Source: a virus. Taken from it: 64,000 bases of DNA. Every line of letters starts with the position of its first letter. Position 1 is the first letter of the stretch. The notes under the pieces were generated by a model. That model was not told where the DNA came from, did no database searches, and saw nothing but the letters and a program-made list of their open reading frames with translations. The DNA lies in the IMG/VR virus record IMGVR_UViG_3300010033_000001, positions 1-64,000 of that record. The stretch is one strand, 5' to 3'. The translations under genes and the position numbers were made by a program. Below, in pieces: positions 1-61,956 of this stretch.

Positions 1-124
1 TAGCTTGGCCTGCATAGAATTGGGCTTCCATATCATTACCTAATTCCTTAGCCTTAAAAAAATTCTCTTTAAATTCTTCGAGACGTTTTTCAACTTTCTC
101 TTTAAGTTCTTCCGCCCTTAACAT
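1..124 (-). CDS. hypothetical protein, 5' fragment (continues past window start)
   Basis: ATG at 124-122 overlaps the TAA (118-120) of the upstream ORF. Frame stays open to position 1. Begins MLRAEELKEKVEKRLEEF (Lys/Glu-rich). Confidence 0.3.
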   Translation of the reverse strand, partial: MLRAEELKEKVEKRLEEFKENFFKAKELGNDMEAQFYAGQA

Positions 125-486
125 TCCTGGCCTCCTTTCTCTTGCTGATTATTTGCCTCTATGAATTTCTCAAATAGTCCTTCAATACCATGAATATTAC
201 CGACCCATTCAAGAGTATATCCATTAGGATATAGTTCAAGGTATCTCTTCTTTCTTCTTTGATTAAAACCTACAGTACTGTGTTCAATGTCAGTGAATGA
301 ATCCCATTTCAATAAAATAGGATCTGTAAATCCTAAATCACTTTTTGCAAATCCTTCTGAACTACAGAAATGTGAATCTATAATATTGCCAGTATCTCCA
401 TCAATCGAATATGCTTGACAGCCGAACTCAGTGTAATTAGTAATTACTCCATAAATGACAGGTAAATTATTTTCTTGATTACTCAT
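118..486 (-). CDS. hypothetical protein
   Basis: ORF 118..510. The Met at 486 gives an 8-nt overlap with the stop (479-481) of the upstream ORF. No recognisable motif. Confidence 0.45.
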   Translation of the reverse strand: MSNQENNLPVIYGVITNYTEFGCQAYSIDGDTGNIIDSHFCSSEGFAKSDLGFTDPILLKWDSFTDIEHSTVGFNQRRKKRYLELYPNGYTLEWVGNIHGIEGLFEKFIEANNQQEKGGQEC

Positions 487-715
487 TACTTTCTCCTTCC
501 TTAACTTCAATATGAAGCTGACTAACTGGGTAGTACTCGGTTATTTCATTATCCTTGATGTAATCAATAGCATCTTCAATGTCTAGAAATGTACTATCAA
601 GAATTACCTCTTGCGGATCAGCTTGACCTTTAGTTATATAAATACATTCAAGTCTTATCTGAAACATTACTTTCTCCTTTCTGTATGTCGTGTATAGATT
701 CAATTTTATCAGCAT
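479..715 (-). CDS. hypothetical small protein (start may be the internal Met at 667)
   Basis: ORF in the minus-strand gene train; overlaps the end of 648..1403. No motif. Confidence 0.35.
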   Translation of the reverse strand: MLIKLNLYTTYRKEKVMFQIRLECIYITKGQADPQEVILDSTFLDIEDAIDYIKDNEITEYYPVSQLHIEVKEGESNE

Positions 716-1403
716 TCTGATTCATTAAGATTAGATGCTGTTGGGCCACCTTAGCGATTTCAAACGAAGATTTGATTTTTTGATAGTCAATTGAATCGTT
801 GGGCGTTTCATAGCTTTTATTCTCTTCAAAGAACTTAACCCAATCATCTGTTTTCTTTTCTCTACAGCCGATTTTAATAGTCTCCATGTAAACAATTATT
901 TGCCACTTACAATAGCTGTTTATGACTATGCCCTGGACTATCTGGTCGCCATTGACTCTCTGGTAGCCATTGACTCTCTGGTCGCCCTGGACTATCTGGT
1001 AGCCATTGACTATCTGGTCGCCCTGGACTATCTGGTAGCCCTGGACTCTCTGGTAGCCATTGACTCTCTGGTAGCCATTGACTCTCTGGTCGCCCTGGAC
1101 TATCTGGTAGCCATTGACTATCTGGTAGCCCTGGACTCTCTGGTCGCCATTGACTCTCTGGTAGCCCTCGACTATCTGGTAGCCATTGACTCTCTGGTCG
1201 CCCTCGACTATCTGGTCGCCCTGGACTATCTGGTCGCCCTGGACTCTCTGGTAGCCATTGACAAAAAGGTTCTTACACTGAATTGATCCTGTTTTAATTA
1301 ATTCACCTTCCAGATAAATATTCTCATCCGGCATGATGATATCTTGTCCTTCTTTGAAGTCTATTACCTTATATTGAATTCCGTAAATGTTTATCGTTTT
1401 CAT
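648..1403 (-). CDS. hexad-repeat protein: 18 near-identical x-G-[DY]-Q-[IR]-V units between unique N- and C-terminal domains
   Basis: 251-aa ORF with a Bacteroidota-type promoter 30 nt upstream. The central part is encoded by an 18-bp tandem DNA repeat. Confidence 0.7.
   Translation of the reverse strand: MKTINIYGIQYKVIDFKEGQDIIMPDENIYLEGELIKTGSIQCKNLFVNGYQRVQGDQIVQGDQIVEGDQRVNGYQIVEGYQRVNGDQRVQGYQIVNGYQIVQGDQRVNGYQRVNGYQRVQGYQIVQGDQIVNGYQIVQGDQRVNGYQRVNGDQIVQGIVINSYCKWQIIVYMETIKIGCREKKTDDWVKFFEENKSYETPNDSIDYQKIKSSFEIAKVAQQHLILMNQNADKIESIHDIQKGESNVSDKT
931..1262. repeat. 18-bp tandem repeat, 18 full units plus a partial one, in frame within CDS 648..1403
   Basis: Units such as ccctggactatctggtcg / ccattgactctctggtag read directly. 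Units differ only at three codons. Confidence 0.95.
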
Positions 1404-1433
1404 TGTCTTATTGTTTTGTTGTCTTGCTTATAA

Positions 1434-1464
1434 CAAATGTAACAAAAGAATCTATACAGACAAA
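1434..1464 (-). promoter_or_regulatory. Bacteroidota-type promoter (TTTG-N19-TAcaTTTG)
   Basis: The minus strand reads TTTG (1464-1461), 19 nt, then TACATTTG (1441-1434). It lies 30 nt upstream of the ATG at 1403 and is part of the conserved box TTTGTTACATTTGTTATAA. Confidence 0.7.
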
Positions 1465-1502
1465 TTTTTTCCGTAATTTTTTACTGAATTTTTTCAGGGC
1501 AT

Positions 1503-1528
1503 AAAAAAACCAGGGGTGACTCCCCTGG
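1503..1528 (-). terminator. Rho-independent terminator
   Basis: 7-bp stem CCAGGGG/CCCCTGG with a 5-nt loop, followed on the minus strand by T7. Confidence 0.7.
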
Positions 1529-1630
1529 CAACTTTAAATGAGAAAAAACGACCGGTCTTATCCGGAAGTCACATAAATGTAATTGATGTACTTTAAAATT
1601 CAAACTCGAGGGAATTCTAGAATTTCTAGA

Positions 1631-1660
1631 ATAAAAGAAGCCAGGCCGTCATAGCCTGGC
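1631..1660 (-). terminator. Rho-independent terminator
   Basis: 7-bp stem GCCAGGC/GCCTGGC followed on the minus strand by TTCTTTTAT. Confidence 0.55.
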
Positions 1661-1715
1661 TAAATGAAAATTACCATGTTTAACCTTACCCAAAGGTTAT
1701 TCAAATATATGTGTT

Positions 1716-1741
1716 TGGCAACTATATACAAAGTGGGACAA
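1716..1741 (+). repeat. left 26-bp terminal inverted repeat TGGCAACTATATACAAAGTGGGACAA
   Basis: Exact reverse complement of 6681..6706. Confidence 0.95.
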
Positions 1742-1976
1742 AGGAAAAAATGCTGGCTCTAAATGCATATGCTTGCATTTTTTCAAATCACGGTAGATCC
1801 CTTGTGCCATGAAAGACTCGTGATATTTCGGGGAACCTACGGAATGTCAAAGAACATTCGCAGCTGCCAGTGTCGCCGATCATCTACAACGGCGCCCCTG
1901 GCATACGGCCAAAACCGACTGCTATTTACACACGCGTATTAGTTTTAAGGTTTCTGAATACACAAAAACCGATTAA

Positions 1977-2207
1977 TTATTTTCCATTCTCACCAAGCCA
2001 GTAATCTAATTCCCATTCACTTATCTCAAGCTGATCTAACGCTATTCTCTTAAGCAAGAGAAACGAAATTCTTTTAAACCCGGTAGGTATCTGGATCAAT
2101 GAGGAATCTTTTAGGACCCAAATATCTTTTCCATTCCTTTTACCTAAAGGGTTTCCGCCGTGTTTATAGATAAGATCTTCTACTGACTTTTTAGAAAACG
2201 TGTACAT
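1977..2207 (-). CDS. hypothetical protein, weak HicA-like pattern without the catalytic His
   Basis: 76-aa ORF 16 nt downstream of a HicB-like gene. The pattern ...LIQIPTGFKRISFLLLKRIALDQL resembles the HicA C-terminus only loosely. Confidence 0.3.
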   Translation of the reverse strand: MYTFSKKSVEDLIYKHGGNPLGKRNGKDIWVLKDSSLIQIPTGFKRISFLLLKRIALDQLEISEWELDYWLGENGK

Positions 2208-2222
2208 ATAAAAATACTGAAA

Positions 2223-2564
2223 TCAAGCGTATGCCAGAACCCTACTCATACTTGGATTAAATACTGGACTATTAAAAAGTTTTGGCTTTTTAAATGTGTT
2301 ATCGGATTTTTTCCATCCAAGATTTCTTAATGCTTCTTCCAATGTACCTAACTCAGAATGAACCTGAAAAAAAGTGTCTAAGGCCGATTTTAGGTCATTG
2401 ATTGCATCTTCCTCGCTGACTTTAGAATATCCGATTGTCTTAAAATGAGGACTAAACAATATCCATTCCCCATCAGACTCTTCAACACTTACTTTTAAAT
2501 CATTAATTTCCAAGGAAATCGTATTGCCGAAACTATCACTTACTATTTTTAATCTAGTATCCAT
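2223..2564 (-). CDS. HicB-like (UPF0150-fold) protein
   Basis: The motif WILFSPHFKTIGYSKVSEEDAINDLKSAL matches the HicB/UPF0150 N-terminal domain pattern (read by eye). Confidence 0.45.
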   Translation of the reverse strand: MDTRLKIVSDSFGNTISLEINDLKVSVEESDGEWILFSPHFKTIGYSKVSEEDAINDLKSALDTFFQVHSELGTLEEALRNLGWKKSDNTFKKPKLFNSPVFNPSMSRVLAYA

Positions 2565-2730
2565 AATTCTCCCCCCTTACTCAAGTTGTTTGTGTGACAC
2601 AATATATAGGTTTTTTATCTCCTTTAAAATCACCTATACTATCACTAACGAAAAAACCCCACCAAAAGATGATCTTTCTTAAATCCCTTACTCTCCAAGA
2701 ACCTTCACAAGCTAACATTGTTGTCTATTA

Positions 2731-3066
2731 TCAAGCAGTCATTAAATAATGGTATTTATTAGTAATTTTTCGTTGAATTGAAAAATTGACTGCCTCACTA
2801 GGTAGAACTTGGCCAGATACCTTTCTGATTTTGATTTTCTTTGACTTCAAATATTCTTCAATGGTACCACGCTTTTTGACTGATTCAAAAAGACACATTA
2901 TAGCCTTCCGAAAATTTATAGAAGCTTCATCGCTCGTTGATCCACTTACGACAATATTTAAATCAGGTGAGTGAACTATAAAGTCTCCTTGATCAATATA
3001 GCTAGAAGCTATTACCTCAAACATCGTCTTAGTTGCTTTCATGTCATATTCACATTTAGTTGTCAT
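2731..3066 (-). CDS. HicB-like (UPF0150-fold) protein (start possibly the Met at 3042)
   Basis: FIVHSPDLNIVVSGSTSDEASINFRKAI shows the same fold signature as the neighbouring gene. Confidence 0.4.
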   Translation of the reverse strand: MTTKCEYDMKATKTMFEVIASSYIDQGDFIVHSPDLNIVVSGSTSDEASINFRKAIMCLFESVKKRGTIEEYLKSKKIKIRKVSGQVLPSEAVNFSIQRKITNKYHYLMTA

Positions 3067-3092
3067 GCAAAATTACAGGTTTTTACAATTAT

Positions 3093-3120
3093 AAAAAAAG
3101 CCCGTCGTTTCCGACAGGCC
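3093..3120 (-). terminator. Rho-independent terminator
   Basis: GC-rich imperfect hairpin (cccgtcg tttc cgacagg) followed on the minus strand by T7. Confidence 0.55.
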
Positions 3121-3185
3121 CCTTAACCAACTTGCAACTGATAAACTATTGCATTACTATGCAAAAGAATCACAATAAAGTGATT

Positions 3186-3494
3186 CTAATTCTTATTTTC
3201 AAGTTTCTGAAGGTTTTCCTTTAAATACTTAATCAGAATTTCACCTTGTTCAATATCGGCATCAAGTATATTAATACTGTGCTCAAGCTGCCTGCTATGC
3301 CTTTTGGCAAGGTCATTTGCCAGATGCTCACGCTGTGCCTTCATTTGATTGAGCTCAAAGGTCGCCTCACCGAGCTCGGTCTTAATTGTGTCGATTGTCA
3401 TACTTTGTTTGTCATTTATGGTTACCTTCAATACCTCATCGAATGTGGCGTTGATTTTGAATTTCTCATTGTATCGATTCTTTCTTTTAGTCAT
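3186..3494 (-). CDS. coiled-coil protein
   Basis: 102-aa ORF whose ATG overlaps the transposase stop by 8 nt. Heptad-like, Glu/Lys/Leu-rich. Confidence 0.5.
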   Translation of the reverse strand: MTKRKNRYNEKFKINATFDEVLKVTINDKQSMTIDTIKTELGEATFELNQMKAQREHLANDLAKRHSRQLEHSINILDADIEQGEILIKYLKENLQKLENKN

Positions 3495-4452
3495 ACCTCA
3501 TGTTTGTTAATTCATCATAGCTTAAAGGCGCCTCACTGCTTTCCAGGAACTTATGCATCCTTTCTGATGCACTCATAGCCCGGGCATTGAAAACGGCAGC
3601 AAACGCATTCAAATACCTGTGCAAATGCTTTTCGCTTATCTGGTGGTGAACACCGTATATGGAACGTTTAAAGAGACTCCAAAAATTTTCTATGCTATTA
3701 GTGTGTACCTGGCCATCGACATACTTCGAAAGGCGGTGCAATATGGTGGCATGGTTGTACCTCTTGTTCAGGTCCATGTATGACTTATTCTCATCGGTGT
3801 ATATGGTGGCACCTGCCGGTACTTTCTGATTAATGAATTCCAAGAGGTGCTTTTTCTTACCGCTGGGCATGTACCTTAAAACGATTTGACCGGATCGCTC
3901 CATGATACCCATGAGCATTTTTTTAGGCTTGTAGGGTGTGCCATCATTTCTAAAATTACCGTTGTTCGGGTCACGCTTGCGGCCAAAGTGTTTGTTCTTC
4001 TCCTTTCCATCAATCCAAGCTTCATCAACCTCAATGGGTCCGGAGCAATCCAAGAACTCAGGTTGTTGCTCCTTAAGCATTTCGCGGATTCGGTGCATCA
4101 TGAACCAGGCTGTTTTCTGTGTGATGCCTAGCAATTCAGCCAGGTAGGGACTAGTGACGCTTTTCTTACTTGTGGTTAGGATATAGATCGCCCCGAACCA
4201 TATTCTCAATGGCTTCTTAGTATTCTGAAAAATAGTTCCGACCAACACCGTGAATTTTTTCCTGCAGTCTTTGTTACTGCACTTATAACCACGATTCGTT
4301 TTGTAGGGCTTTTCACTTTGGCAATGCGGGCACCTGGGCTTGCCGTTCCATCTAATTTGTTCGTAGTACTCGATTGCCGTTTTTTCATCACGGAAATAAT
4401 CGAGCAAATGAGGTAGGGATTTGAAATTCATGTCGTAAATAATCGTTGTCAC
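3487..4452 (-). CDS. IS1595-family (ISXO2-like) DDE transposase
   Basis: N-terminal zinc ribbon (CPHCQS...CSNKDC), an HTH region, then an ISXO2-like core (EVDEAWIDGK...IYTDENKSY...HTNSIENFWS). Confidence 0.8.
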   Translation of the reverse strand: MTTIIYDMNFKSLPHLLDYFRDEKTAIEYYEQIRWNGKPRCPHCQSEKPYKTNRGYKCSNKDCRKKFTVLVGTIFQNTKKPLRIWFGAIYILTTSKKSVTSPYLAELLGITQKTAWFMMHRIREMLKEQQPEFLDCSGPIEVDEAWIDGKEKNKHFGRKRDPNNGNFRNDGTPYKPKKMLMGIMERSGQIVLRYMPSGKKKHLLEFINQKVPAGATIYTDENKSYMDLNKRYNHATILHRLSKYVDGQVHTNSIENFWSLFKRSIYGVHHQISEKHLHRYLNAFAAVFNARAMSASERMHKFLESSEAPLSYDELTNMRYD

Positions 4453-4499
4453 TTCAAAGATAAGACATGTCCCAATAACTACCTAATTTTTTAACAACT

Positions 4500-4727
4500 T
4501 TAAAATTCAAGTTCAGTTTCCAGCAGATCAGGCAGGTCCATTTCCAGGCCCTCGCATACCTCGAGTAAAAAAATGAAGCTGGGATTTACCCTGCCTCGCT
4601 CGAGTCTATTAATTGAAGGCTGATCCTTACCGATCTTATGTGCCAAATGCGTTTGTGAAATTCCCATTCGTGTGCGTACTATTTTTACTTTTTTCCCTAA
4701 CTCTTGCAACCTCCCGTCATCTTTCAC
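4500..4727 (-). CDS. XRE/Cro-CI family helix-turn-helix regulator
   Basis: GISQTHLAHKIGKDQPSINRLERGRVNPS is a canonical HTH_3 signature. Confidence 0.85.
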   Translation of the reverse strand: MKDDGRLQELGKKVKIVRTRMGISQTHLAHKIGKDQPSINRLERGRVNPSFIFLLEVCEGLEMDLPDLLETELEF

Positions 4728-4769
4728 AATGAAAAGGTATTCTATTTCAAACAGAACAATTATAACCGA

Positions 4770-4789
4770 TTTGTTATATTTGTAACAAA
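4770..4789 (+). promoter_or_regulatory. plus-strand copy of the phage promoter box (TTTGTTATATTTGTAACAAA; -7 element TATATTTG at 4775-4782)
   Basis: Lies in the divergent gap between XRE (start 4727) and the plus-strand gene (ATG 4803). There is no clean TTTG at -33. Confidence 0.45.
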
Positions 4790-4802
4790 AAAATTGATCT
4801 AT

Positions 4803-5273
4803 ATGAAAGTTTTTAAAAAACCATTCAAGAGGCCTTACCTATTGACAATGGTCTTTTTATTTGGTGCGTTGATGTTTAGCCGATCTGTGTTTTCCAATCC
4901 TGAGCAAGGTACTATCGTATCACTGCACGAGCGTCTTATGACAAAGTACTTTGAGGTAACGGCCAATGATGTGAAAATATCATACGATCATGGAACAACG
5001 TTAATGGTCAACCTTACTTATAAAAACATTGATTCCAAAAATCGGAAAATTGAAAATGGACATGTATTCGTAAAAGGCAAGGGCGGTAAGACCTACAAGA
5101 TTGATGTTACTTTAACTAAAACATCGAACGCGGTTCATATGCAATTAAAAACCCAAACATCAATCAAAATCGATATAGCATTTAAGATCCCTAATAGTAT
5201 GTCAGGTAGGATATATTATCAACCGGCCGACTCATATGAGGGGTCTTTCATAGACTTAGGAGAATTATATTGA
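4803..5273 (+). CDS. secreted/exported protein
   Basis: The Met at 4803 gives the signal-peptide-like N-terminus MKVFKKPFKRPYLLTMVFLFGALMFSRSVFS. The track ORF 4704.. starts further upstream in the promoter region. Confidence 0.6.
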   Translation: MKVFKKPFKRPYLLTMVFLFGALMFSRSVFSNPEQGTIVSLHERLMTKYFEVTANDVKISYDHGTTLMVNLTYKNIDSKNRKIENGHVFVKGKGGKTYKIDVTLTKTSNAVHMQLKTQTSIKIDIAFKIPNSMSGRIYYQPADSYEGSFIDLGELY

Positions 5274-5295
5274 TTTTTAACAAATCTGAAATATT

Positions 5296-5484
5296 ATGTG
5301 TAATGAAGATTTTAGAGAATATGCAGAAATGCTTCAAAGAAACCTCGGTTTGATACCTGAATTTATCATTTATGCTGAAGCCTACTTAAAAGACGTTGGC
5401 ATCGAACCAAATGAAGAAAATCAGGAAGAATGTATGGAGCTCTTACTGAAGTTTGCACAGGATCTAGCTAAGGAATCTGATTGA
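5296..5484 (+). CDS. small acidic protein
   Basis: 62-aa ORF 23 nt after the previous stop. Confidence 0.4.
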   Translation: MCNEDFREYAEMLQRNLGLIPEFIIYAEAYLKDVGIEPNEENQEECMELLLKFAQDLAKESD

Positions 5485-5487
5485 GAG

Positions 5488-5601
5488 ATGCATAAGATGC
5501 CCACACATTCAAACGACTCGGTATTGCTCTTGGTATTCATTGGGGTCATAGTATTGGTAACTGCCATGCTACTGAAACACGACAAAAAGAAAGGTTCCTG
5601 A
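5488..5601 (+). CDS. 37-aa single-pass membrane peptide
   Basis: Hand-translated as MHKMPTHSNDSVLLLVFIGVIVLVTAMLLKHDKKKGS. Starts 4 nt after the previous stop. Below the ORF-track size cutoff. Confidence 0.35.
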   Translation: MHKMPTHSNDSVLLLVFIGVIVLVTAMLLKHDKKKGS

Positions 5602-5735
5602 CGACCACTTATTGAGATTGTATTTTTAAGTTCTTAAAAATTCACTACATTCAAGCATTGGCTTGCTGGGACAAGCAAGCTGGTAGATCAGCTGTACCTA
5701 TACGGTGTCATCGTATCGGGTACCGCACTCAGTGG

Positions 5736-5763
5736 GGCCGGCTATATGCCGGCTCTGTTTTTT
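5736..5763 (+). terminator. Rho-independent terminator
   Basis: GCCGGC tatat GCCGGC followed by TCTGTTTTTT. Confidence 0.55.
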
Positions 5764-5792
5764 AATAGCGATGTCAAATTAAACTTTACGAT

Positions 5793-6062
5793 ATGATAGG
5801 ATGGCAAGATTACTATGAGTACATGCATAGTGTACAAGAATCAATGATCGAAAACATGAAACCGATTGTTGATGATGATCCAAGCACTCAATACTTAAAA
5901 AGGTCGAATGAAAAGATCAAATTGGAACGGCAATTTGCAGAAGCATCGATTCAATTCATGCAATCAAATGGTATACCTGCAAGTCATGAAAATTATACAA
6001 TCAGTACTGCGATGATGCTGCCGTTATTAAATGAATTATATAGAAAGCGGATGACTATGTGA
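5793..6062 (+). CDS. hypothetical protein
   Basis: 89-aa plus-strand ORF followed by a terminator. Confidence 0.45.
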   Translation: MIGWQDYYEYMHSVQESMIENMKPIVDDDPSTQYLKRSNEKIKLERQFAEASIQFMQSNGIPASHENYTISTAMMLPLLNELYRKRMTM

Positions 6063-6278: not shown

Positions 6279-6364
6279 GGCGCAGTGGCGAAATCGGTAA
6301 ACGCATCAGATTTTGACTCTGATATCCGTCCCAGGATTTGTCGGTTCGAATCCGACCTGCGCTT
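6279..6364 (+). tRNA. class II tRNA (long variable arm, Leu-like D arm) with anticodon UUG (Gln by anticodon)
   Basis: Acceptor GGCGCAG/CTGCGCT (G1-U72 wobble), U8, D stem GCG/CGC with loop AAATCGGTAAA. Anticodon stem TCAGA/TCTGA with loop TTTTGAC (anticodon 6313-6315). 17-nt variable arm with an ATCC/GGAT stem. T arm GTCGG-TTCGAAT-CCGAC. Confidence 0.7.
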
Positions 6365-6373
6365 CTATTTATC

Positions 6374-6444
6374 AGTGCCGTGTCCGAGTGGCCAGGTAAT
6401 GTGGTTGCCCCCCATTTACACCGGTTCGAATCCGGTCGGCACTT
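6374..6444 (+). tRNA. 71-nt tRNA-like gene, anticodon ambiguous (GCC or UGC)
   Basis: Perfect acceptor AGTGCCG/CGGCACT and T arm ACCGG-TTCGAAT-CCGGT. Ser/Tyr-like D loop GAGTGGCCA, but the D and anticodon stems are weak. Confidence 0.5.
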
Positions 6445-6475
6445 CAAAGATAGGCTTTTAGGCCTATCAAGTATT

Positions 6476-6553
6476 GGGGGAGTAGCTCAACCCGGATAGA
6501 GCGTCTGACTTAAAATCAGAAAGTTGCGGGATCGTACCCCGTCTCCTCCACCA
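6476..6553 (+). tRNA. class I tRNA with anticodon UAA (Leu by anticodon), 3' CCA encoded
   Basis: Acceptor GGGGGAG/CTCCTCC (one G-U), D arm GCTC-AACCCGGATA-GAGC, anticodon arm TCTGA-CTTAAAA-TCAGA (anticodon 6511-6513). 5-nt variable loop, T arm GCGGG-ATCGTAC-CCCGT, then A-CCA. Confidence 0.8.
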
Positions 6554-6846: not shown

Positions 6847-8526
6847 TTACCGCAAAATGTACGGCGCTATCGTTGATTGTCCAAGCTTGCGATTCTTACG
6901 CACCCAATTCCAATATACTGCTGCATCGAATATATTAGGTGACTTACCGCCCAAACGCTTTTTGATTTGATCCTTAGACTCGATTTTGATCATCTTGTCT
7001 GATATGCTGTACTTCACCAATGTACACTGCTTGACAAATTCCTGAAGCGTTCTAGGATCAGCGATATCGACAATGAAATCACGATGCATAAGATCCAGAC
7101 GGAATTGAAACATCATTTGCGCCCTGAGTGATGCAAAGGTGTATTTGGGGTTACCCTCGCGATCAACGGGTATACAGTCCATATCAGGACCACCTTGCAA
7201 ACCGATCACACTATAGTTCAATCTTGCAAATTCGTTAATGGTACCAACACCAACACCAACTGCATCGACTCCTACGGATTGATGATCAACACCCTGATGC
7301 TTTAACTTCCAAGTATGATAAATCGGAATACCGTGTTGCCTCAGGTGCTCATCATCATTCACCAGATTATCAGCCAGGGCATTTGCGTTTGGACATTGGA
7401 ATTCATTGATGCGAGTCATCACATTACGCTTACCCCACACCAAACAGGCCTTATCACCAGCCTCAGAGTTGGCCACGTCAACACCTAGTGCATTATTGCA
7501 ATCTACTATGTGCTTATTAGTGCCGTCATCGTTCAGTTCATTCTGATCGAGGATGTTATGATCATATTCCTTACGCTGAGTACAGCAAGCTACTATCCAT
7601 TCATGCATGATCAGCGAGTCACTGGATTGTGCCGGTGCAATACCTCGAGCTCGAGACTTAAAGAAGGGTGAATCTTCTCCATATTCCTCACGCCGTTCAT
7701 CAATCGACTGAATGGTAACAGCCCCGGGAATGATTTCTTTTTTGTTGACTACGTTAGGGTGATCATAGCCTGATATGATGATGTGGTGAGTATTAGGACG
7801 CTCACAAAACAGGTGTAATGCATCGGTTTGAGAATCAGGGTTACCAATGGCACATATGACATTGTTTTCACCTGTACAAGTGTTCACAATGGCTTTCACT
7901 ACTGCGGGTGATATCCCGGCAGTTTCTTCGAGTAAGAAAAGCATATTTTTGGCATGGTATCCCTGCATCTTTGTGGCTGACTCCTCATCGGCACCGACTC
8001 CGGAAACCACACCGATCATTTGGTGCGCGTCGTTACCTTCCTCATCCATGTGTTTGTTCAACCTCATACGTCCATCCGGAAGTATTCGTAAGCTGTACAG
8101 CTGGGCACGGTTGTTCATTTTCCTGAACTTTTTAAAGCCCTTGGCCACTTCTTTCCATAGAATAGTTTTGAGTTGTGTAAGCTTTGGAGCTGTGGCTATC
8201 ACTATTGAGTCCTCATATACATCCAAGAACCAATAGGCAAGGCGGGCCACCATGTAAGTCTTGCCGGTGCCCGTGGCTGACTCAATGCCAACGTTCTGTT
8301 TATTGGCTAAGGCCTTGCATGCTTCCAAGAATGGGTTCACTGTTCCATCCCATTGGTGATTTTCATATCCGCCATGTACTGTCCAGTCCAGTGAGCCGAT
8401 CGGTTCCTTAAACTTTTCTATCATCCACTTATCGGGATATCGCTGGTAATACTTTCTTTCAACTACTTTGTGTAATTGTTCCAGCATTTGCCGCCTTGTA
8501 ACGTGCGGATGATTTGTGACTGTCAT
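6847..8526 (-). CDS. terL: terminase large subunit
   Basis: Walker A GIESATGTGKTY, Walker B-like MLFLLEE, C-terminal nuclease-sized domain. ATGA overlap with the upstream small-terminase candidate. Confidence 0.8.
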   Translation of the reverse strand: MTVTNHPHVTRRQMLEQLHKVVERKYYQRYPDKWMIEKFKEPIGSLDWTVHGGYENHQWDGTVNPFLEACKALANKQNVGIESATGTGKTYMVARLAYWFLDVYEDSIVIATAPKLTQLKTILWKEVAKGFKKFRKMNNRAQLYSLRILPDGRMRLNKHMDEEGNDAHQMIGVVSGVGADEESATKMQGYHAKNMLFLLEETAGISPAVVKAIVNTCTGENNVICAIGNPDSQTDALHLFCERPNTHHIIISGYDHPNVVNKKEIIPGAVTIQSIDERREEYGEDSPFFKSRARGIAPAQSSDSLIMHEWIVACCTQRKEYDHNILDQNELNDDGTNKHIVDCNNALGVDVANSEAGDKACLVWGKRNVMTRINEFQCPNANALADNLVNDDEHLRQHGIPIYHTWKLKHQGVDHQSVGVDAVGVGVGTINEFARLNYSVIGLQGGPDMDCIPVDREGNPKYTFASLRAQMMFQFRLDLMHRDFIVDIADPRTLQEFVKQCTLVKYSISDKMIKIESKDQIKKRLGGKSPNIFDAAVYWNWVRKNRKLGQSTIAPYILR

Positions 8527-11857: not shown

Positions 11858-11939
11858 AAAAAAAGCCGATTAAAAAACCAGCTTTTCAGTGACAACTTTA
11901 GCTTTTCATTACGACATGAAAGCATGTCACAAATGTAAC

Positions 11940-11970
11940 GAAAAAATTGTGTATGGCAATCACAATTTTG
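11940..11970 (-). promoter_or_regulatory. promoter box (TACATTTG -7 element, weak -33 ATTG)
   Basis: The minus strand has TACATTTG at 11947-11940, lying 83 nt upstream of the ATG at 11857 and just downstream of two terminators. Confidence 0.45.
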
Positions 11971-16264: not shown

Positions 16265-16295
16265 CAAATGTAACAAATTGTATGAAACCCACAAA
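16265..16295 (-). promoter_or_regulatory. Bacteroidota-type promoter (TTTG-N19-TAcaTTTG)
   Basis: The minus strand reads TTTG (16295-16292), 19 nt, then TACATTTG (16272-16265), 19 nt upstream of the ATG at 16246. The conserved box TTTGTTACATTTGTTATAA is present. Confidence 0.7.
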
Positions 16296-19945: not shown

Positions 19946-20701
19946 TCATATCGTAATGTTTTTGATTTTCTGAAGATTGTGTTTCATCAACTCAATTCCA
20001 TAGTCGCCAATGTACGAAAATTTTTTTAACCTGTTCAAAATTTGTTCATTGGTTATTCCTTTGTCGATCCAATCATCGAAATAATGATGCATGGTAAGCT
20101 TACCCTTTGCAGGGATAACAGCAAGGAACATTTTTGAATCCACCAGGCAATTCAGGATATCATCGGAAAAACGATCTACGGCCGGTTCGATGGCTTTTAG
20201 TTGGTGTCCCTTGTATGCTGCTACGATCATGCGCTTAATGATCTGATCGTGTTCGAATAGCTTCTTTCGTTCATCATCAACGATGTCACCGATCATTAGC
20301 TTGATGTGTAGGTCACGGGCTCGGGCATTATCCCGTCCTTTCTTGTACCAGGTAAGGATCTTGTGAACATAATCCACCCCGATGGACTGGTAGTGTTTAG
20401 TTAGATTCTCATTGTTTGCCTCAATTGCCAATTCGAAAGCCTTTATGATTTCCAAGGGTTTCAGGTCGGAATGCTTGTTGCATACCCAGTTGACAATGAC
20501 TTTGCCTGAAGCACGATCGGGAAAGTTTTCTTCTTTCAACCCCATTAGGGAGAATGCATGTTCCAATGATGTTGCTATCTCATTTTTAAACTGGGCTACT
20601 TCATTGCTATCCTGAACCACATGGGGTGTAGCTTTTACTTTTCGCTTCGGGTCAATCAGCCCACCCGCGAGATCCTGTATTTTTTTTGGTTCCTTTTCCA
20701 T
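19946..20701 (-). CDS. hypothetical replication-module protein
   Basis: 251-aa ORF immediately downstream of the initiator candidate. Confidence 0.45.
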   Translation of the reverse strand: MEKEPKKIQDLAGGLIDPKRKVKATPHVVQDSNEVAQFKNEIATSLEHAFSLMGLKEENFPDRASGKVIVNWVCNKHSDLKPLEIIKAFELAIEANNENLTKHYQSIGVDYVHKILTWYKKGRDNARARDLHIKLMIGDIVDDERKKLFEHDQIIKRMIVAAYKGHQLKAIEPAVDRFSDDILNCLVDSKMFLAVIPAKGKLTMHHYFDDWIDKGITNEQILNRLKKFSYIGDYGIELMKHNLQKIKNITI

Positions 20702-21608
20702 TTCCTTTGGCTTTAGTTCTCATGATCGATACAATTTCGTTGATATTGGAATCAATATCCTTTAAATCCATTTTGTTGTAGAGGTAATTGTTCTGGTGGC
20801 CCTCAAGTAAGTGCCAGTTATCGAGTAGTGCCTGCCAAGCTTCAACTACATCATCATCGGTTTTGATCTTGTTCTGAGTCTTGAGGTATCTGATAATGCT
20901 TTTCATTTTTCTTCCCGCAATAGCGGTCATCTTTGGTTTTACTGAATTCATTTTTTCGAACCAGACAAAGTATATTTCCAGCATGCGAACGTAGAGTTCG
21001 TTTTCAGCTTTTTCATGTTGGACGCCTTCAAAAACCTGGTTCCAAACCGAATCAAAATTTTTTGCAAAAAATTCTATTTCCTTTTCATGTTGATCGCGCG
21101 AAGTGATGAGCGCGATAAAAGAATAAAGATGTTTAAGTGTTTTAGTGTTTAAGTGTTTTATTATACTAACAATGCTTTGGTAGTTGCTTTGGTAGTTGCT
21201 TTGGATAGTGCTTTGGTATTTTTTACCGAAGCTCTCGAAATCTTCATCATTTGCTTTGGTAATTGCTTTGGTAATTGCTTTGGTACCTGCTTTGGTAGTT
21301 GCTTTGGTAGTTGCTTTGGTACTTTTTACCAAAGCAATTCTATTGGAAGTAAACTGATTTGTCGACCTTGAAATCACATGGATCATCCCCCATTTATCCA
21401 GGTCATCAAAAGCTTTTTTATAGGTCTTGTAACTACTTATCCCAATGGAGGCCATGGTTCTATCGGTAGGCACACCGAATTCAGGCGGCCACCCCAGGGT
21501 ATTGCAAAGGTTAACACATGCATAGTATAAAGCATGATGAACCGGCTTTACTTCAGCGTTACCATAGGCAAAGCCGGTCCATTCTTTTTGATATTCGTAT
21601 CCCGTCAT
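20652..21608 (-). CDS. replication initiator / replisome organiser candidate containing internal iterons
   Basis: Winged-helix-like N-terminus. The central TKATTKATTKAGTKAITKAITKA and YQSTIQSNYQSNYQS stretches are encoded by 12-bp DNA repeats, a lambda O-like arrangement. Confidence 0.5.
   Translation of the reverse strand: MTGYEYQKEWTGFAYGNAEVKPVHHALYYACVNLCNTLGWPPEFGVPTDRTMASIGISSYKTYKKAFDDLDKWGMIHVISRSTNQFTSNRIALVKSTKATTKATTKAGTKAITKAITKANDEDFESFGKKYQSTIQSNYQSNYQSIVSIIKHLNTKTLKHLYSFIALITSRDQHEKEIEFFAKNFDSVWNQVFEGVQHEKAENELYVRMLEIYFVWFEKMNSVKPKMTAIAGRKMKSIIRYLKTQNKIKTDDDVVEAWQALLDNWHLLEGHQNNYLYNKMDLKDIDSNINEIVSIMRTKAKGNGKGTKKNTGSRGWAD
21173..21335. repeat. two clusters of 12-bp iterons GCTTTGGTAnTT (4 + 6 copies), each ending in an inverted copy; candidate replication origin
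   Basis: Units at 21173, 21185, 21197, 21209 and at 21253, 21265, 21277, 21289, 21301, 21313. Palindromic ends GCTTTGGTAttttttACCGAAGC and GCTTTGGTActttttACCAAAGC. An adjacent direct repeat GTTTAAGTGTTTTA occurs twice (21131-21160). Confidence 0.6.
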
Positions 21609-27574: not shown

Positions 27575-27605
27575 CAAATATAACAAACCAGAATCAACAG
27601 ACAAA
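27575..27605 (-). promoter_or_regulatory. Bacteroidota-type promoter (TTTG-N19-TAtaTTTG)
   Basis: The minus strand reads TTTG (27605-27602), 19 nt, then TATATTTG (27582-27575). The conserved box TTTGTTATATTTGTTATAA is present. Confidence 0.7.
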
Positions 27606-59412: not shown

Positions 59413-61956
59413 TTACGTTATTATTGCGACTGAGCGACCCCGGCAATTTGGATGATAAGGGGGCGTGGTTATATCATTACTTTGTAGTTGCTGTGCATCC
59501 ATTCGCTGAAACTCATCTAAGTCGAATGAGGTTGCAAATGGGGATCGTCGGTTTAACGATTCCGGAGGCGACTCGAGTATATTGTTAATCTTGGTTACTG
59601 CCTGGCTGACTGATAGGACCATGCCATGCATATGCCGGCAATACGGACATGTCAACTGATCATTGACCTCAACAACTTCATATTGCGTAACCTGGGCCTG
59701 ATCCATATACCTGATGTTGGCGATGTTCCTGGCTGCATTCATTGTGGTTTGAATGATACGCTTAGCCTTCCATTCCTCGAGTGTGACGTTATCAGAGAGC
59801 TCAGTCAGGAATGCATCAAGGTTTGACGGGCTATCAAGGGCAACGTTTTCGGAAAGGTAATTTTCATTGATCACCGTTACAAGGCGCTGGCGCGTATCAG
59901 GATCCATGATGAACTTTCCTAAATAGAAATCATCGGATTGCCTTAAGAAATCAATGGCCCGGGCATCATTGAGGTCAAAGACTGCATCCGGAATTTCAAA
60001 ATCCTGGAATGATATTCCGTTCTTTTGCTTGGCAAGCGCAATGCCTTCATCAAACGGCCTTTGCTCACGTCTATAGAAACGATATGTTTCCATGATATTT
60101 GATGAAATCGTATCGCTGGCAGCGACTTGAAAATGCTGATCCCAGTTCACATAAAGACCGAGCAATACACCGTTCCTGAACTCAGTGAGTGTTTCATCAC
60201 CGCGCATATTTTCAATTGCAACACGAGAATCTTGAATTGCTTTGCCTACTGCTGAATCAAATACAGCTTTGATTTGGAATAGGTAATTATTGACAAAGCC
60301 CTGTATACGTCTATCTGCAAATTCGGTGGCCTCGAGTTGGTAACTGTGCTGATCACCGTGGTTATGATCATGGTGGTGGTGGTGGCCATGGTCATGATGA
60401 TGATGATGATGATGTTCATGGTCATCATCCTCGCATTCTACTGGAATATAATAATCATATAAATATTCATCGCCACCCATTCGATTAATGACCGATCTTA
60501 AGTCCTCGCTGAATCTGCGTAGGCGCATATTTTCGATATTGTCAGTTCCCTCGCTGCCCGGATTAGTCGAGCCAGGGCCATTTGGTTCAGTAGTAACACC
60601 ATTACCACCACCAGGATTAGCCCTGAATAATGGCTCCGGAAGTGCAGGTTCCTCATACCCTAATTCAATGGCAGCCTGATTTTGATCAATAAAACCTTCA
60701 TCACGTTTCTTGGTAACATTTTCAATTTTCAGTTTTTCAGTTTCTTCCTCCCTTTTCTTATCAGTGATCATCGGCTTTTCAAACTTGATTTGTACGAAAC
60801 CAGGTGAAAAACCATTTAATAGCAAATCCATTAATACCACACGTTCAAGGAACGATGCAACGATGCGCTGGTAGTTGTCAATGTTCTTACTCATCTTAGC
60901 CAGCAATACACGCCCGAAAGTTTCGGTAGTGCTTTGATTGTCGCCCAAAAGTGATGGGTCCTGCTTAACACCATTATAAACCAAAGTCTTGATCATATCA
61001 AGCAACTGGCTAGATCCCTCAGCATTAACATTGGTTCCCTGCAACTGAAATTCGTAGAAATCTTTGTAGCCGATTGTTACACCTTGGCTGAATCCATTTT
61101 GAATCTGTGGGTACACATCATCGAGGTGTTTCTTTAATCTGGCTTCATAGGCTGTATCACCTTCTCCATTTCTTCGCTCAGGCCTGGCAAGTAATACAGA
61201 AAGGAACCCTAACATGCCGATGCGACGCATCATTGACCTGAAGCTTTTGAGCATATCATTTTCAGCTGCCAAGTCAATTAGTGCCGAGAATAATGGCGGT
61301 ATCGCATAAGGCTCTTGCTGAAACTTTTGAATAGCAATGTAGCTATAGGTTGCCGTGTTCAATTGGCGGTAGCCTGATATGGCCATGCTACTCACGGTCG
61401 TATCACGCTGAAGGGGTAAGTATAAATCATTCTCCTTATCACGGACAAATTTGATATCAACCGGATTGACTTTGTGAACCCGCTTAACTCCAGAAAGATC
61501 TGGTTCTATTTCGGCCTCAGCTGAAACACATCCGAATGTGGCTGCCTGGTAGAACAGATCATTGATCAATGTATTTTCGCCATCAGAAAAGTCATACCAG
61601 TCACCTATCCTGGTCTTAATGTGTGTGATCATTTGGCTCCTCATTTCATCAGAAACCTCATCAGAAAAGTTGTATTCGAAATCAGTGTTGCCCAATGTCA
61701 TGATATTGTTGACAGCGAATGATACGTGTCGGTTATATATGGACAAGTTTTCGAGTATGGGTAATAACTGGATATCGAAATCTGTGGAAGTAGGAGAAAA
61801 GGGATCCAGGCTAATATTGATGTCAGCCTGATCGACTGATGATCTACCACCGCGTACAGGTGTCTCTATTGAGTCCTCCCCAGTGATAAATGATTGTTGT
61901 ACAGGTGTTTCTACTGCGCGCGCGCTGCCGTAAAATTCTATATCCTTAAGCACCAT
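59413..61956 (-). CDS. portal protein fused to a MuF-like (SPP1 gp7-type) minor head domain, with an internal poly-His tract
   Basis: 847 aa. The portal-sized N-terminal part is followed by EDDDHEHHHHHHHDHGHHHHHDHNHGDQH. The C-terminus has LTCPYCRHMHG...TPPYHPNCRG, typical of Phage_Mu_F domains. Confidence 0.6.
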   Translation of the reverse strand: MVLKDIEFYGSARAVETPVQQSFITGEDSIETPVRGGRSSVDQADINISLDPFSPTSTDFDIQLLPILENLSIYNRHVSFAVNNIMTLGNTDFEYNFSDEVSDEMRSQMITHIKTRIGDWYDFSDGENTLINDLFYQAATFGCVSAEAEIEPDLSGVKRVHKVNPVDIKFVRDKENDLYLPLQRDTTVSSMAISGYRQLNTATYSYIAIQKFQQEPYAIPPLFSALIDLAAENDMLKSFRSMMRRIGMLGFLSVLLARPERRNGEGDTAYEARLKKHLDDVYPQIQNGFSQGVTIGYKDFYEFQLQGTNVNAEGSSQLLDMIKTLVYNGVKQDPSLLGDNQSTTETFGRVLLAKMSKNIDNYQRIVASFLERVVLMDLLLNGFSPGFVQIKFEKPMITDKKREEETEKLKIENVTKKRDEGFIDQNQAAIELGYEEPALPEPLFRANPGGGNGVTTEPNGPGSTNPGSEGTDNIENMRLRRFSEDLRSVINRMGGDEYLYDYYIPVECEDDDHEHHHHHHHDHGHHHHHDHNHGDQHSYQLEATEFADRRIQGFVNNYLFQIKAVFDSAVGKAIQDSRVAIENMRGDETLTEFRNGVLLGLYVNWDQHFQVAASDTISSNIMETYRFYRREQRPFDEGIALAKQKNGISFQDFEIPDAVFDLNDARAIDFLRQSDDFYLGKFIMDPDTRQRLVTVINENYLSENVALDSPSNLDAFLTELSDNVTLEEWKAKRIIQTTMNAARNIANIRYMDQAQVTQYEVVEVNDQLTCPYCRHMHGMVLSVSQAVTKINNILESPPESLNRRSPFATSFDLDEFQRMDAQQLQSNDITTPPYHPNCRGRSVAIIT

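Follow-up and report, generated by a model that had tools for sequence, protein, structure and literature searches.

The gene analysed here lies close to the start of a stretch of tailed-phage DNA, positions 1 to 64,000 of the IMG/VR virus record IMGVR_UViG_3300010033_000001 (64,000 nucleotides, hereafter the window), and encodes a 251-residue protein in which 18 tandem hexapeptides of the form x-G-[D/Y]-Q-[I/R]-V join two unique domains. The 18-bp units that encode these hexapeptides differ from one another at three codons only; in this gene and its relatives the units are homogenised within each gene and differ between genes, the same three positions are dimorphic across the family, the number and order of units vary, and the hexapeptide is similar, in register, to that of YdcK-type proteins. 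Taken together, these observations make it probable that the protein is a YdcK-like hexapeptide solenoid whose gene undergoes concerted evolution while selection keeps three surface positions of the rod mixed.

The repeat array and its coding strand

When the coding sequence (CDS) is cut codon by codon, 18/18 in-frame units follow the formula [AAT/CAG/GAG] GGC [GAC/TAC] CAG [ATA/AGA] GTC. In particular, only nucleotides 1-3, 7 and 14 of the 18-bp unit vary, and 0 of the 108 codons of the array carries a synonymous change. The first-pass annotation of this DNA had described 18 tandem units at 931-1262, with every difference confined to three toggling codons, invariant Gly, Gln and Val codons and no synonymous drift, and this description stands in full save for the boundaries, which move by a few bases (1259..936). 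Tandem Repeats Finder reports a period of 18 and 18.2 copies, and the degenerate core GGCKACCAGAKAGTC has 18 matches in the window, all of them within the array, where 0.16 would be expected by chance. The uniformity of the array is not a matter of codon bias, because in 32 other open reading frames (ORFs) of the window GGC makes up only 21% of Gly codons, GTC 16% of Val codons and CAG 50% of Gln codons (ATA accounts for 29% of Ile and AGA for 24% of Arg codons in the same ORFs); the chance of 18 consecutive GGC codons is approximately 6e-13.

Nine of the 12 possible unit types occur in the array, and we looked for a periodic order of unit types along it and saw none. That the three toggles assort independently, as had been proposed, holds within the limit of n=18 units, since none of the pairwise Fisher tests is significant (p 0.15, 1.0 and 1.0). 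The array does contain an exact 71-bp duplication whose copies are offset by six units, which argues that it grew partly by the duplication of multi-unit blocks.

Note that both strands are open through the array, so that a second frame, of 128 codons on the + strand, could be read across it. This frame was rejected as a gene: it has no flanking conserved domains, and it is only the - frame that joins the N- and C-terminal domains conserved in homologues, all of which keep the - strand reading. The - strand is therefore taken as coding.

As a separate observation, a tRNA cluster at 6279-6553 (+) comprises tRNA-Gln(TTG), tRNA-Gly(GCC) and tRNA-Leu(TAA), the tRNA-Gln call being unusually long at 87 nt. 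Two of the amino acids concerned, Gly and Gln, hold fixed positions in the hexad (Val being the one other fixed residue). The GGC codon, which tRNA-Gly(GCC) decodes, is used 18 times in the array and makes up about a fifth (21%) of Gly codons elsewhere. Any tie between the cluster and the array may be coincidence.

Concerted evolution, residue dimorphism and turnover among relatives

A sequence search followed by a profile search of a 5.8-billion-protein collection yielded 36 relatives, and scans of IMG/VR, JGI and GTDB added 15 further loci. The hexad x-G-[DY]-Q-[IR]-V is common to approximately 20 homologues in phage contigs. Most of the relatives follow a single plan: a short beta-rich N-terminal domain, hexads of the form [EKQN]-G-[DYN]-Q-[IR]-V, and then a domain of approximately 90 residues with the signature IKIGC...W..F. 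Arrays range from 4 hexads (P0009) to at least 42 (L027). Relatives close to the window phage were not found: megablast of window positions 1-6000 against 50,697 phage genomes returned nothing, an exact 30-mer from the flank of the array was absent from IMG/VR and the JGI metagenomes, and a scan of IMG/VR and metagenomes for closely related proteins gave nothing above approximately 60% identity.

The codons of the fixed Gly, Gln and Val residues come as one set per gene, and the set differs from gene to gene: GGC/CAG/GTC in the window, GGC/CAG/GTT in L001, GGT/CAA/GTC in L006, GGC/CAG/GTA in L009, GGG/CAA/GTC in L017, GGT/CAA/GTT in L018 and GGA/CAG/GTC in L027. (Older arrays, namely those of L002, L005, L010 and L026, have heterogeneous codons.) The fact that units are more alike within a gene than between orthologues argues for ongoing homogenisation by unequal exchange, slippage or conversion; the uniformity of the array DNA is concerted evolution. 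The recent shuffling or expansion of units suggested at first pass fits with this pattern of codons, uniform within and different between genes, and with the six-unit block duplication.

These same codon sets bear on whether the array might have a role as DNA, such as origin iterons or an array of protein-binding sites inside a gene, with the protein pattern being secondary. Eighteen direct 18-bp repeats do look iteron-like, and the relatives adjoin replication or recombination genes. However, it is the peptide that is conserved whereas the DNA varies (GGC/GGT/GGG/GGA, CAG/CAA and GTC/GTT/GTA), arrays always lie in frame between conserved domains, and the same hexads occur in bacterial adhesins. 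An origin of the iteron type was rejected for the lack of conservation of the repeat DNA among relatives, and we consider any primary DNA-level role to be extremely unlikely.

Of 247 hexads taken together from 18 arrays, 247/247 have Gly at position 2 and Gln at position 4; position 6 is Val in 240 and Ile in 7, position 3 is mainly Asp (106), Tyr (98) or Asn (23), position 5 mainly Ile (127) or Arg (97), and position 1 mainly Glu (135) or Lys (88). The window protein departs from the family only in its Asn/Gln/Glu at position 1. All tabulated arrays of at least 6 hexads are mixed at positions 1, 3 and 5, and in most of them the D/Y and I/R pairs are close to 1:1. For example, the I:R counts per array run 9:9, 7:6, 3:3, 3:3, 8:8, 12:9, 14:12, 6:6, 6:6, 4:4 and so on, and are slightly under-dispersed around 1:1 (chi-square 6.6 on 14 degrees of freedom, lower-tail p=0.05). 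Homogenisation alone would fix one state, so something maintains the mixture. Moreover, the I/R pair of L009 is encoded by ATC/CGC, two steps apart, instead of ATA/AGA, which argues that the dimorphism is selected as amino acids and is not just an inherited single-base polymorphism. (The pairs differ in a few relatives: position 5 of L020 has I/T, for instance, and Asn is also used at position 3.) Shuffling and selection on surface positions had been put forward as alternatives at first pass; the recurrence of the dimorphisms in approximately 20 genes that differ in their synonymous codons, ATC/CGC in L009 among them, suggests instead that both act.

We envisage that unequal recombination, replication slippage and short-tract gene conversion would duplicate, delete and recombine units. 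Such exchange would homogenise the codons within a gene, alter copy number and shuffle the two or three alleles of each surface codon, while selection at the level of the protein would keep the surface positions mixed between charged and hydrophobic or aromatic residues (I/R and D/Y, with E/K in relatives and N/Q/E in the window protein). If selection left the order free, the outcome would be a combinatorial pattern that differs between close relatives.

Patterns that differ between relatives are indeed observed. The loci L001 and L024, from different metagenomes, do not differ at all (100% identity) across the 509 bp that lead up to the gene and into it, and yet 4 of the first 95 bases of the array differ, all at toggle nucleotides 1 and 14 (Fisher p=6e-4); an indel of two units plus one conversion would account for these differences. 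Similarly, L019, L023 and L028 have near-identical N-terminal domains and different unit orders. Neither number nor order of units is thus fixed among the relatives, which are metagenomic and include none near-identical to the window phage, and the instability of copy number anticipated from the exact repeats is borne out by arrays of 4 to at least 42 hexads and by the L001/L024 pair, which has the same flanks and different toggles. The accompanying comparison with a contingency locus was misleading, because the 18-bp unit keeps the frame, so that changes affect the length and pattern of the rod and not the on/off state of expression. An on/off phase-variable locus was rejected on the grounds that the unit length is a multiple of three.

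The L001/L024 pair also raises the idea that the toggle nucleotides are rewritten by a dedicated mechanism, either one resembling a diversity-generating retroelement or one that actively rewrites a code like that of transcription activator-like (TAL) effectors. The differences within the pair are restricted to toggle nucleotides next to an identical flank of 509 bp, each toggle is a switch of a single nucleotide (G/T, T/G or A/G), most arrays are near 1:1, and ATA/AGA, the only single-step Ile/Arg pair, is kept in 16/17 arrays. Nevertheless, each site has two or three states, and AAT and CAG differ at three bases with no intermediates, which points to the exchange of whole alleles; the L009 pair is two-step; and the L001/L024 differences are largely explained by the indel and conversion described above. 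A diversity-generating retroelement target in particular was rejected: the unit has no template copy elsewhere in the window, the approximately 40 window ORFs scanned against Pfam (which did not include every small ORF) yielded no reverse transcriptase, and the unit contains invariant A's and T's, so the variation is not adenine-specific. We regard programmed rewriting as very unlikely, and favour unit exchange combined with selection on the protein.

A further concern is that the number or order of units, or even the whole pattern, might result from mis-assembly of a repeat that is shorter or heterogeneous in the population. Contigs of relatives often end within the array (L016, L024, L025 and L028), and one contig, IMGVR_UViG_3300033153_003239, both begins and ends in it (L021 1-760 and L023 7917-8283), with an overlap of 78 bp and an apparent frameshift at a partial unit. 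Hexad arrays can thus break or mis-join metagenome assemblies and mimic terminal repeats, and we take metagenomic unit counts and orders with caution. In the window array, however, no k-mer of 77 nt or more occurs twice and no exact internal repeat exceeds 71 bp, so that its ambiguities are short enough for ordinary reads to span; moreover, the frame is intact, the flanking domains are conserved, and the same architecture is seen again in numerous separate assemblies as well as in the cultured phage phiRM10, whose genome is complete. Mis-assembly could alter the count or order of units; it could not create the three-codon pattern. An artefact is therefore a quite unlikely account of the array.

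Fold and relation to known repeat families

The closest likeness is to the YdcK repeat (PF18836/NF040481), which has the same six-residue period and V-x-G-x-[A/Q]-x in the same register. Two phage proteins of this type served for comparison: phiRM10 gp34, which matches PF18836 (B_solenoid_ydck) at 1.5e-41, and gp209 of Bacillus phage Bp8p, which matches NF040481 at 2.9e-21. Both are built like the window protein, with a cap at the N-terminus, then a rod whose length varies, then a small C-terminal domain that contains Cys, and both lie in early or recombination regions. BLASTP aligns the window protein with Bp8p gp209 at E=2e-14 over 167 residues, including the pre-repeat region, and hhalign aligns the family profile with phiRM10 gp34 at a probability of 96.6%, both statistics being inflated by the repeats. 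In the Bp8p gp209 alignment, which is in register, the G and V residues of the two proteins coincide and Q faces A. The difference lies at position 4 of the hexad, where Gln replaces the small Ala, and neither the PF18836 nor the NF040481 hidden Markov model (HMM) matches the window protein. The C-terminal domains likewise have little in common, since hhalign joins the IKIGC domain of the window protein and the CGCF domain of the YdcK type over 16 columns only (probability 7.6%).

The gp34 gene of phiRM10, a cultured Ruminococcus phage with a complete genome (L012 3773-4591, -), shows the same behaviour at the DNA level. Its 25 units of 18 bp encode G-[ND]-A-[RQW]-V-[SY]. The GGT, GCT and GTA codons never vary, the three positions that correspond to the window toggles alternate between AAC/GAC, TGG/CGG/CAG and TAC/TCC, and the array has a higher-order period of eight units. 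Combinatorial toggling at alternate positions is thus general to phage hexapeptide-solenoid genes. (The antisense frame of gp34 is open too, and drew a spurious tblastn match.)

Left-handed beta-helices follow the rule [LIV]-[GAED]-X2-[STAV]-X. The window protein shares the hexapeptide period of the left-handed beta-helix enzymes of PF00132 (LpxA, LpxD and GlmU), with the aliphatic residue i corresponding to the invariant Val in 18/18 units, and differs in that i+4, which should be a small residue (S/T/A/V), is Gln in 18/18 window units and in 247/247 hexads of the family. It also lacks the catalytic context of these enzymes, and its DNA units are near-identical whereas those of the enzymes are not. 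Gln at a site that is normally small is probably why no Pfam model fires. Of the beta-helical proteins that the family profile ranks best among PDB sequences (a tail fibre, YdcK, LpxD and bactofilin), none is a significant match (YdcK 2f9c, E=0.07; LpxD, E=0.5; bactofilin, E=1.8). The bactofilin model PF04519 does not match the window protein and is passed by phiRM10 gp34 (40.4 bits), and one homologue carries the JGI label 'isoleucine patch superfamily'. A collagen-like repeat was rejected because Gly recurs at every sixth and not every third residue, and because the NCBIfam collagen-adhesin score is 30 bits against a cut-off of 500.

An AlphaFold2 model built with a 26-sequence alignment has a mean predicted local distance difference test score (pLDDT) of 86 and makes Q-[IR]-V a strand of three residues in every hexad up to approximately residue 138, where confident modelling of the array ends. 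The N-terminal domain is modelled with pLDDT 92-97 and strands at residues 3-6, 9-13, 22-33, 35-38 and 41-50, and aligns with the pre-repeat region of Bp8p gp209. The best Foldseek matches of the model in BFVD are phage pentapeptide-repeat proteins. Fixed and variable positions alternate strictly along the hexad; the Gly, Gln and Val of positions 2, 4 and 6 are most likely structural, and positions 1, 3 and 5 would face outward, in keeping with the earlier description of a solenoid-like coding repeat that varies at alternate, presumably surface, positions. The 18 units would then form the rungs of a rod of the YdcK or left-handed beta-helix type, most likely with three hexads per turn and approximately six turns, in what would be a small cytoplasmic accessory protein of the phage made of an N-terminal cap, a rod of variable length and the C-terminal IKIGC domain.

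Several points weigh against this reading. First, AlphaFold2 builds unrealistic solenoids with high confidence from perfect repeats (PMC11795689), so that the regular strands and high pLDDT of the model, which speak for the solenoid, are by themselves weak evidence. Second, the full model has no significant Foldseek match in the PDB (best E=0.15), HMM searches against PDB sequences gave no significant match, and the window protein does not match Pfam Hexapep (at E<=0.1), B_solenoid_ydck or Bactofilin; indeed, Gln at i+4 breaks the small-residue rule of left-handed beta-helices. Third, we infer the surface exposure of the toggling residues, whose side-chain orientation is not seen in the model. 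Fourth, one signal in favour of the solenoid, an anti-correlation of I and R that is present at a lag of three hexads and at no other (odds ratio 0.39, p=0.004 uncorrected), and that would fit a turn of 18 residues in which like residues are kept from stacking, fails correction for approximately 35 tests, and some of the arrays are mutually related. Fifth, ATA/AGA is kept in 16/17 arrays while the Gly, Gln and Val codons drift, and pure selection at the protein level does not predict so nearly universal a pair. Finally, the sequences compared in the L001/L024 pair are metagenome assemblies, the second of which stops within the array.

To these must be added the matches of the family profile to trimeric autotransporter adhesins, which raise the prospect that the rod is a trimeric fibre (a triple beta-helix or prism) with a structural or adhesive role and not a monomeric cytoplasmic solenoid. 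An exhaustive profile search of 1.84 billion representative proteins returned 5774 matches at E<1e-3. Many of these proteins are 500-6500 residues long with several repeat stretches, and the long ones examined are trimeric autotransporter adhesins with a YadA stalk and anchor, in which runs of GDQTV and GNQTV lie outside the Pfam models. In addition, tblastn finds matches in annotated tail fibres of Synechococcus and Cellulophaga phages, and the window protein's PHROG matches comprise families of unknown function together with weak, repeat-driven matches to tail-fibre families. The passenger hexads of the adhesins, G-[DN]-Q-x-V (GDQTV/GNQTV/GDSTV), are the same as those of the window protein, are strongly detected by the family profile and also lack Pfam cover. 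They differ in that position 5 is mostly Thr and not I/R and, probably, in being less uniform as DNA, and the adhesins themselves are huge, secreted and obligately trimeric. By comparison, the window protein is a small one in which neither a signal peptide nor a tail-attachment domain was detected; it also lacks YadA anchor and stalk domains (such domains are present in P0042 and P0050), its gene is far from the tail module, and the genes of relatives have early or recombination neighbours. Moreover, pentapeptide repeats, whose solenoids are monomers or dimers, are found joined to the same C-terminal domain. We therefore think a trimeric fibre unlikely and retain the hexapeptide solenoid of the YdcK type as the probable fold.

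Pentapeptide repeats (PF00805; Qnr, MfpA) are comparable in forming a rod-like beta-solenoid and in sharing the IKIGC domain and the genomic niche; they differ in their period of 5, A(D/N)LXX, and quadrilateral fold, and the two kinds of repeat have no sequence similarity. The IKIGC domain, of approximately 90 residues with I27, G28, C29 and W37 invariant in the homologue alignment, follows pentapeptide repeats in more than 20 small phage proteins, and in P0032 is preceded by a different hexad, VG[DG][SW]L[KE]. There are also stand-alone IKIGC-domain proteins of 55-93 residues (P0176, P0140, P0192-P0194 and P0201), so the domain forms a module in its own right, to which rods built of different repeats have been added. 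For the C-terminal domain, comparisons with Pfam, PDB sequences and structures (Foldseek, best PDB E=1.4) yielded no match.

Two homologues have other architectures. In P0011 (L005 4308-5096), a long hydrophobic stretch comes after the hexads, and then a C-terminal region that may resemble cell-wall hydrolases; Pfam gave no match for this protein. P0024 has hydrophobic stretches at its N-terminus, ahead of the hexads and of a linker rich in Pro, Thr and Ser, and only sub-threshold Pfam matches to Bactofilin and TamB. The hexad rod may thus also serve in envelope-associated proteins.

Genomic setting and possible roles

Features of the repeat gene and its surroundings are collected in Table 1. 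The first-pass annotation had credited the gene with a strong promoter of its own and with a position next to the left inverted repeat of a cassette. A sigma-70 scan upstream of the gene found no site, and what stands of the first claim is a promoter-like motif with Bacteroidota-type boxes, TTTG-N19-TAnnTTTG, whose sequence is TTTGTTACATTTG. An extended form of the motif, TTTGTTAYATTTG, has 5 copies in the window where 0.74 would be expected; all are intergenic, each points at the next gene, often with a -33 TTTG located 19-21 nt upstream. This motif suggests a Bacteroidota host, although several genes also have AGGAG-like ribosome-binding sites. The second claim does not hold, and an inverted repeat of a mobile element is ruled out: the arms at 1414-1438 and 4769-4793 are only 72% complementary and amount to opposed copies of the promoter motif.

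Table 1. Coordinates of the repeat gene, its parts and nearby signals in the window
Feature	Position	Strand	Remarks
CDS of the 251-residue repeat protein	648..1403	-	stop codon at 648-650; N- and C-terminal domains kept in homologues P0001-P0023
N-terminal domain, residues 1-48, predicted beta-rich	1260..1403	-	homologue alignment and AlphaFold2
Array of 18 x 18-bp units (18 hexads x-G-[D/Y]-Q-[I/R]-V)	936..1259	-	residues 49-156
71-bp exact internal duplication, copy 1	948..1018		equals 1056..1126
71-bp exact internal duplication, copy 2	1056..1126		offset from copy 1 of 108 bp (6 units)
Degenerate 19th hexad, QGIVIN	918..935	-	joins array to C-terminal domain; junction kept as [EK]G[IL][VI]I[NS] in P0001-P0003
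C-terminal domain CKW...IKIGC...W..FF, predicted small beta-sheet and two helices	651..917	-	AlphaFold2 pLDDT 85
Antisense open frame, 128 residues, LDYLVAIDSLVA...	900..1286	+	by-product of the repeat, not a gene
Promoter-like motif TTTG-N19-TACATTTG	1434..1464	-	Bacteroidota-type -33/-7 boxes; ends 31 nt upstream of the ATG
Copies of TTTGTTAYATTTG	1434-1446(-), 4770-4782(+), 11930-11942(-), 16265-16277(-), 27575-27587(-)		-7 box TAnnTTTG
Terminator-like hairpin	1509..1529	-	upstream of the promoter motif; isolates the repeat gene from upstream transcription
Second terminator-like hairpin	1661-1639	-	in the gene-free stretch 1530-1976

The gene-free stretch 1530-1976 has a further promoter-like match at 1702-1732(-) and a GC-rich segment at approximately 1790-1930; it contains nothing at Rfam gathering scores and could encode small RNAs. 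Further along the accessory region, an IS1595-family transposase gene is inserted at 3487-4452 (-; DDE_Tnp_IS1595 at 8.9e-38, plus a zinc ribbon), adjoining an XRE-type helix-turn-helix gene at 4500-4727. The window as a whole is that of a tailed phage with a baseplate of the contractile-tail type. It carries a large terminase gene (6847-8526), structural genes (Baseplate_J, Phage_base_V, Tail_P2_I, a tail-collar fibre, tape measure, a capsid protein and a Mu-F-like protein), and genes for an SNF2 helicase, an AAA_24 protein and an amidase; the tail module, at roughly 30-57 kb, is far from the repeat gene. Two other sequence features were noted. A second coding tandem repeat, of period 12 bp, lies at 21130-21322 in the replication region (gene 20652-21608, -) and encodes TKAT/TKAI runs followed by QSNY repeats, in a 318-residue protein with no Pfam match. 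A His/Asp-rich tract, DDDHEHHHHHHHDHGHHHHHDHNHGDQH, is found at 60359-60425 within an 847-residue protein (gene 59413-61956, -) whose C-terminus matches Phage_Mu_F, and may be a metal-binding insertion in a head-morphogenesis protein.

With respect to function, the window protein has nothing significant in Pfam, NCBIfam or PADLOC, and no defence-system, Pfam or structural match offers a clue. Among relatives, the neighbouring genes are RecT and DUF1367, Gam and Rad52, VapE and RusA, or RecJ and QueC; a primase-helicase and an unannotated ORF of 242 residues also adjoin the gene, with a terminase further downstream, and the pentapeptide version of the gene adjoins YqaJ and RdgC. On the basis of this neighbourhood, and of the interchangeability with pentapeptide-repeat rods, our tentative guess is that the protein could be a cytoplasmic rod-shaped binding or decoy module directed against a factor of host or phage DNA metabolism or of defence. 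The length and surface pattern of such a module would either vary freely or be subject to diversifying pressure. Our literature search on autotransporter hexapeptide repeats, YdcK solenoids and phage pentapeptide proteins yielded nothing specific to these repeats.

A more far-reaching suggestion, to which we give little credence, is that the array might be a rewritable recognition barcode analogous to that of TAL effectors. TAL effectors have near-identical coding repeats with few variable codons per unit, whose order is reshuffled by recombination; their units are of 33-35 residues, alpha-helical and DNA-reading. In such a barcode, the residues of each rung (R/I, Y/D, and K/N/Q versus E) would be either contact-competent or inert. 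Were this so, recombination within the gene would reshuffle the rungs so that they fit, or evade, a partner that is itself periodic or variable, such as a defence sensor, a nucleic acid or a filamentous protein of the host, and the near-1:1 states of most arrays and the single-step pairs ATA/AGA, GAY/TAY and GAR/AAR would be adaptations for evolvability.

The hexapeptide solenoid that we favour would have wider implications. The family defines an unannotated hexapeptide class, x-G-[DYN]-Q-x-V, with Gln where the beta-helix rules expect a small residue and with no Pfam model, and its profile reaches thousands of proteins, among them phage accessory proteins, tail fibres and trimeric autotransporter adhesins. 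In practice, arrays of this kind call for caution, since metagenome assemblies break at them and AlphaFold2 is apt to model them with undue confidence. Concerted evolution together with balancing selection within an array would make this a clean natural case of the two processes acting side by side, and one that could guide the design of soluble solenoids. For the phages themselves, the family is modular, with a cap, a rod of 4 to at least 42 rungs and a C-terminal domain that can also be used behind pentapeptide rods, and its arrays are among the fastest-changing parts of otherwise identical genomes, making the repeat protein a candidate factor in the interaction between phage and host.

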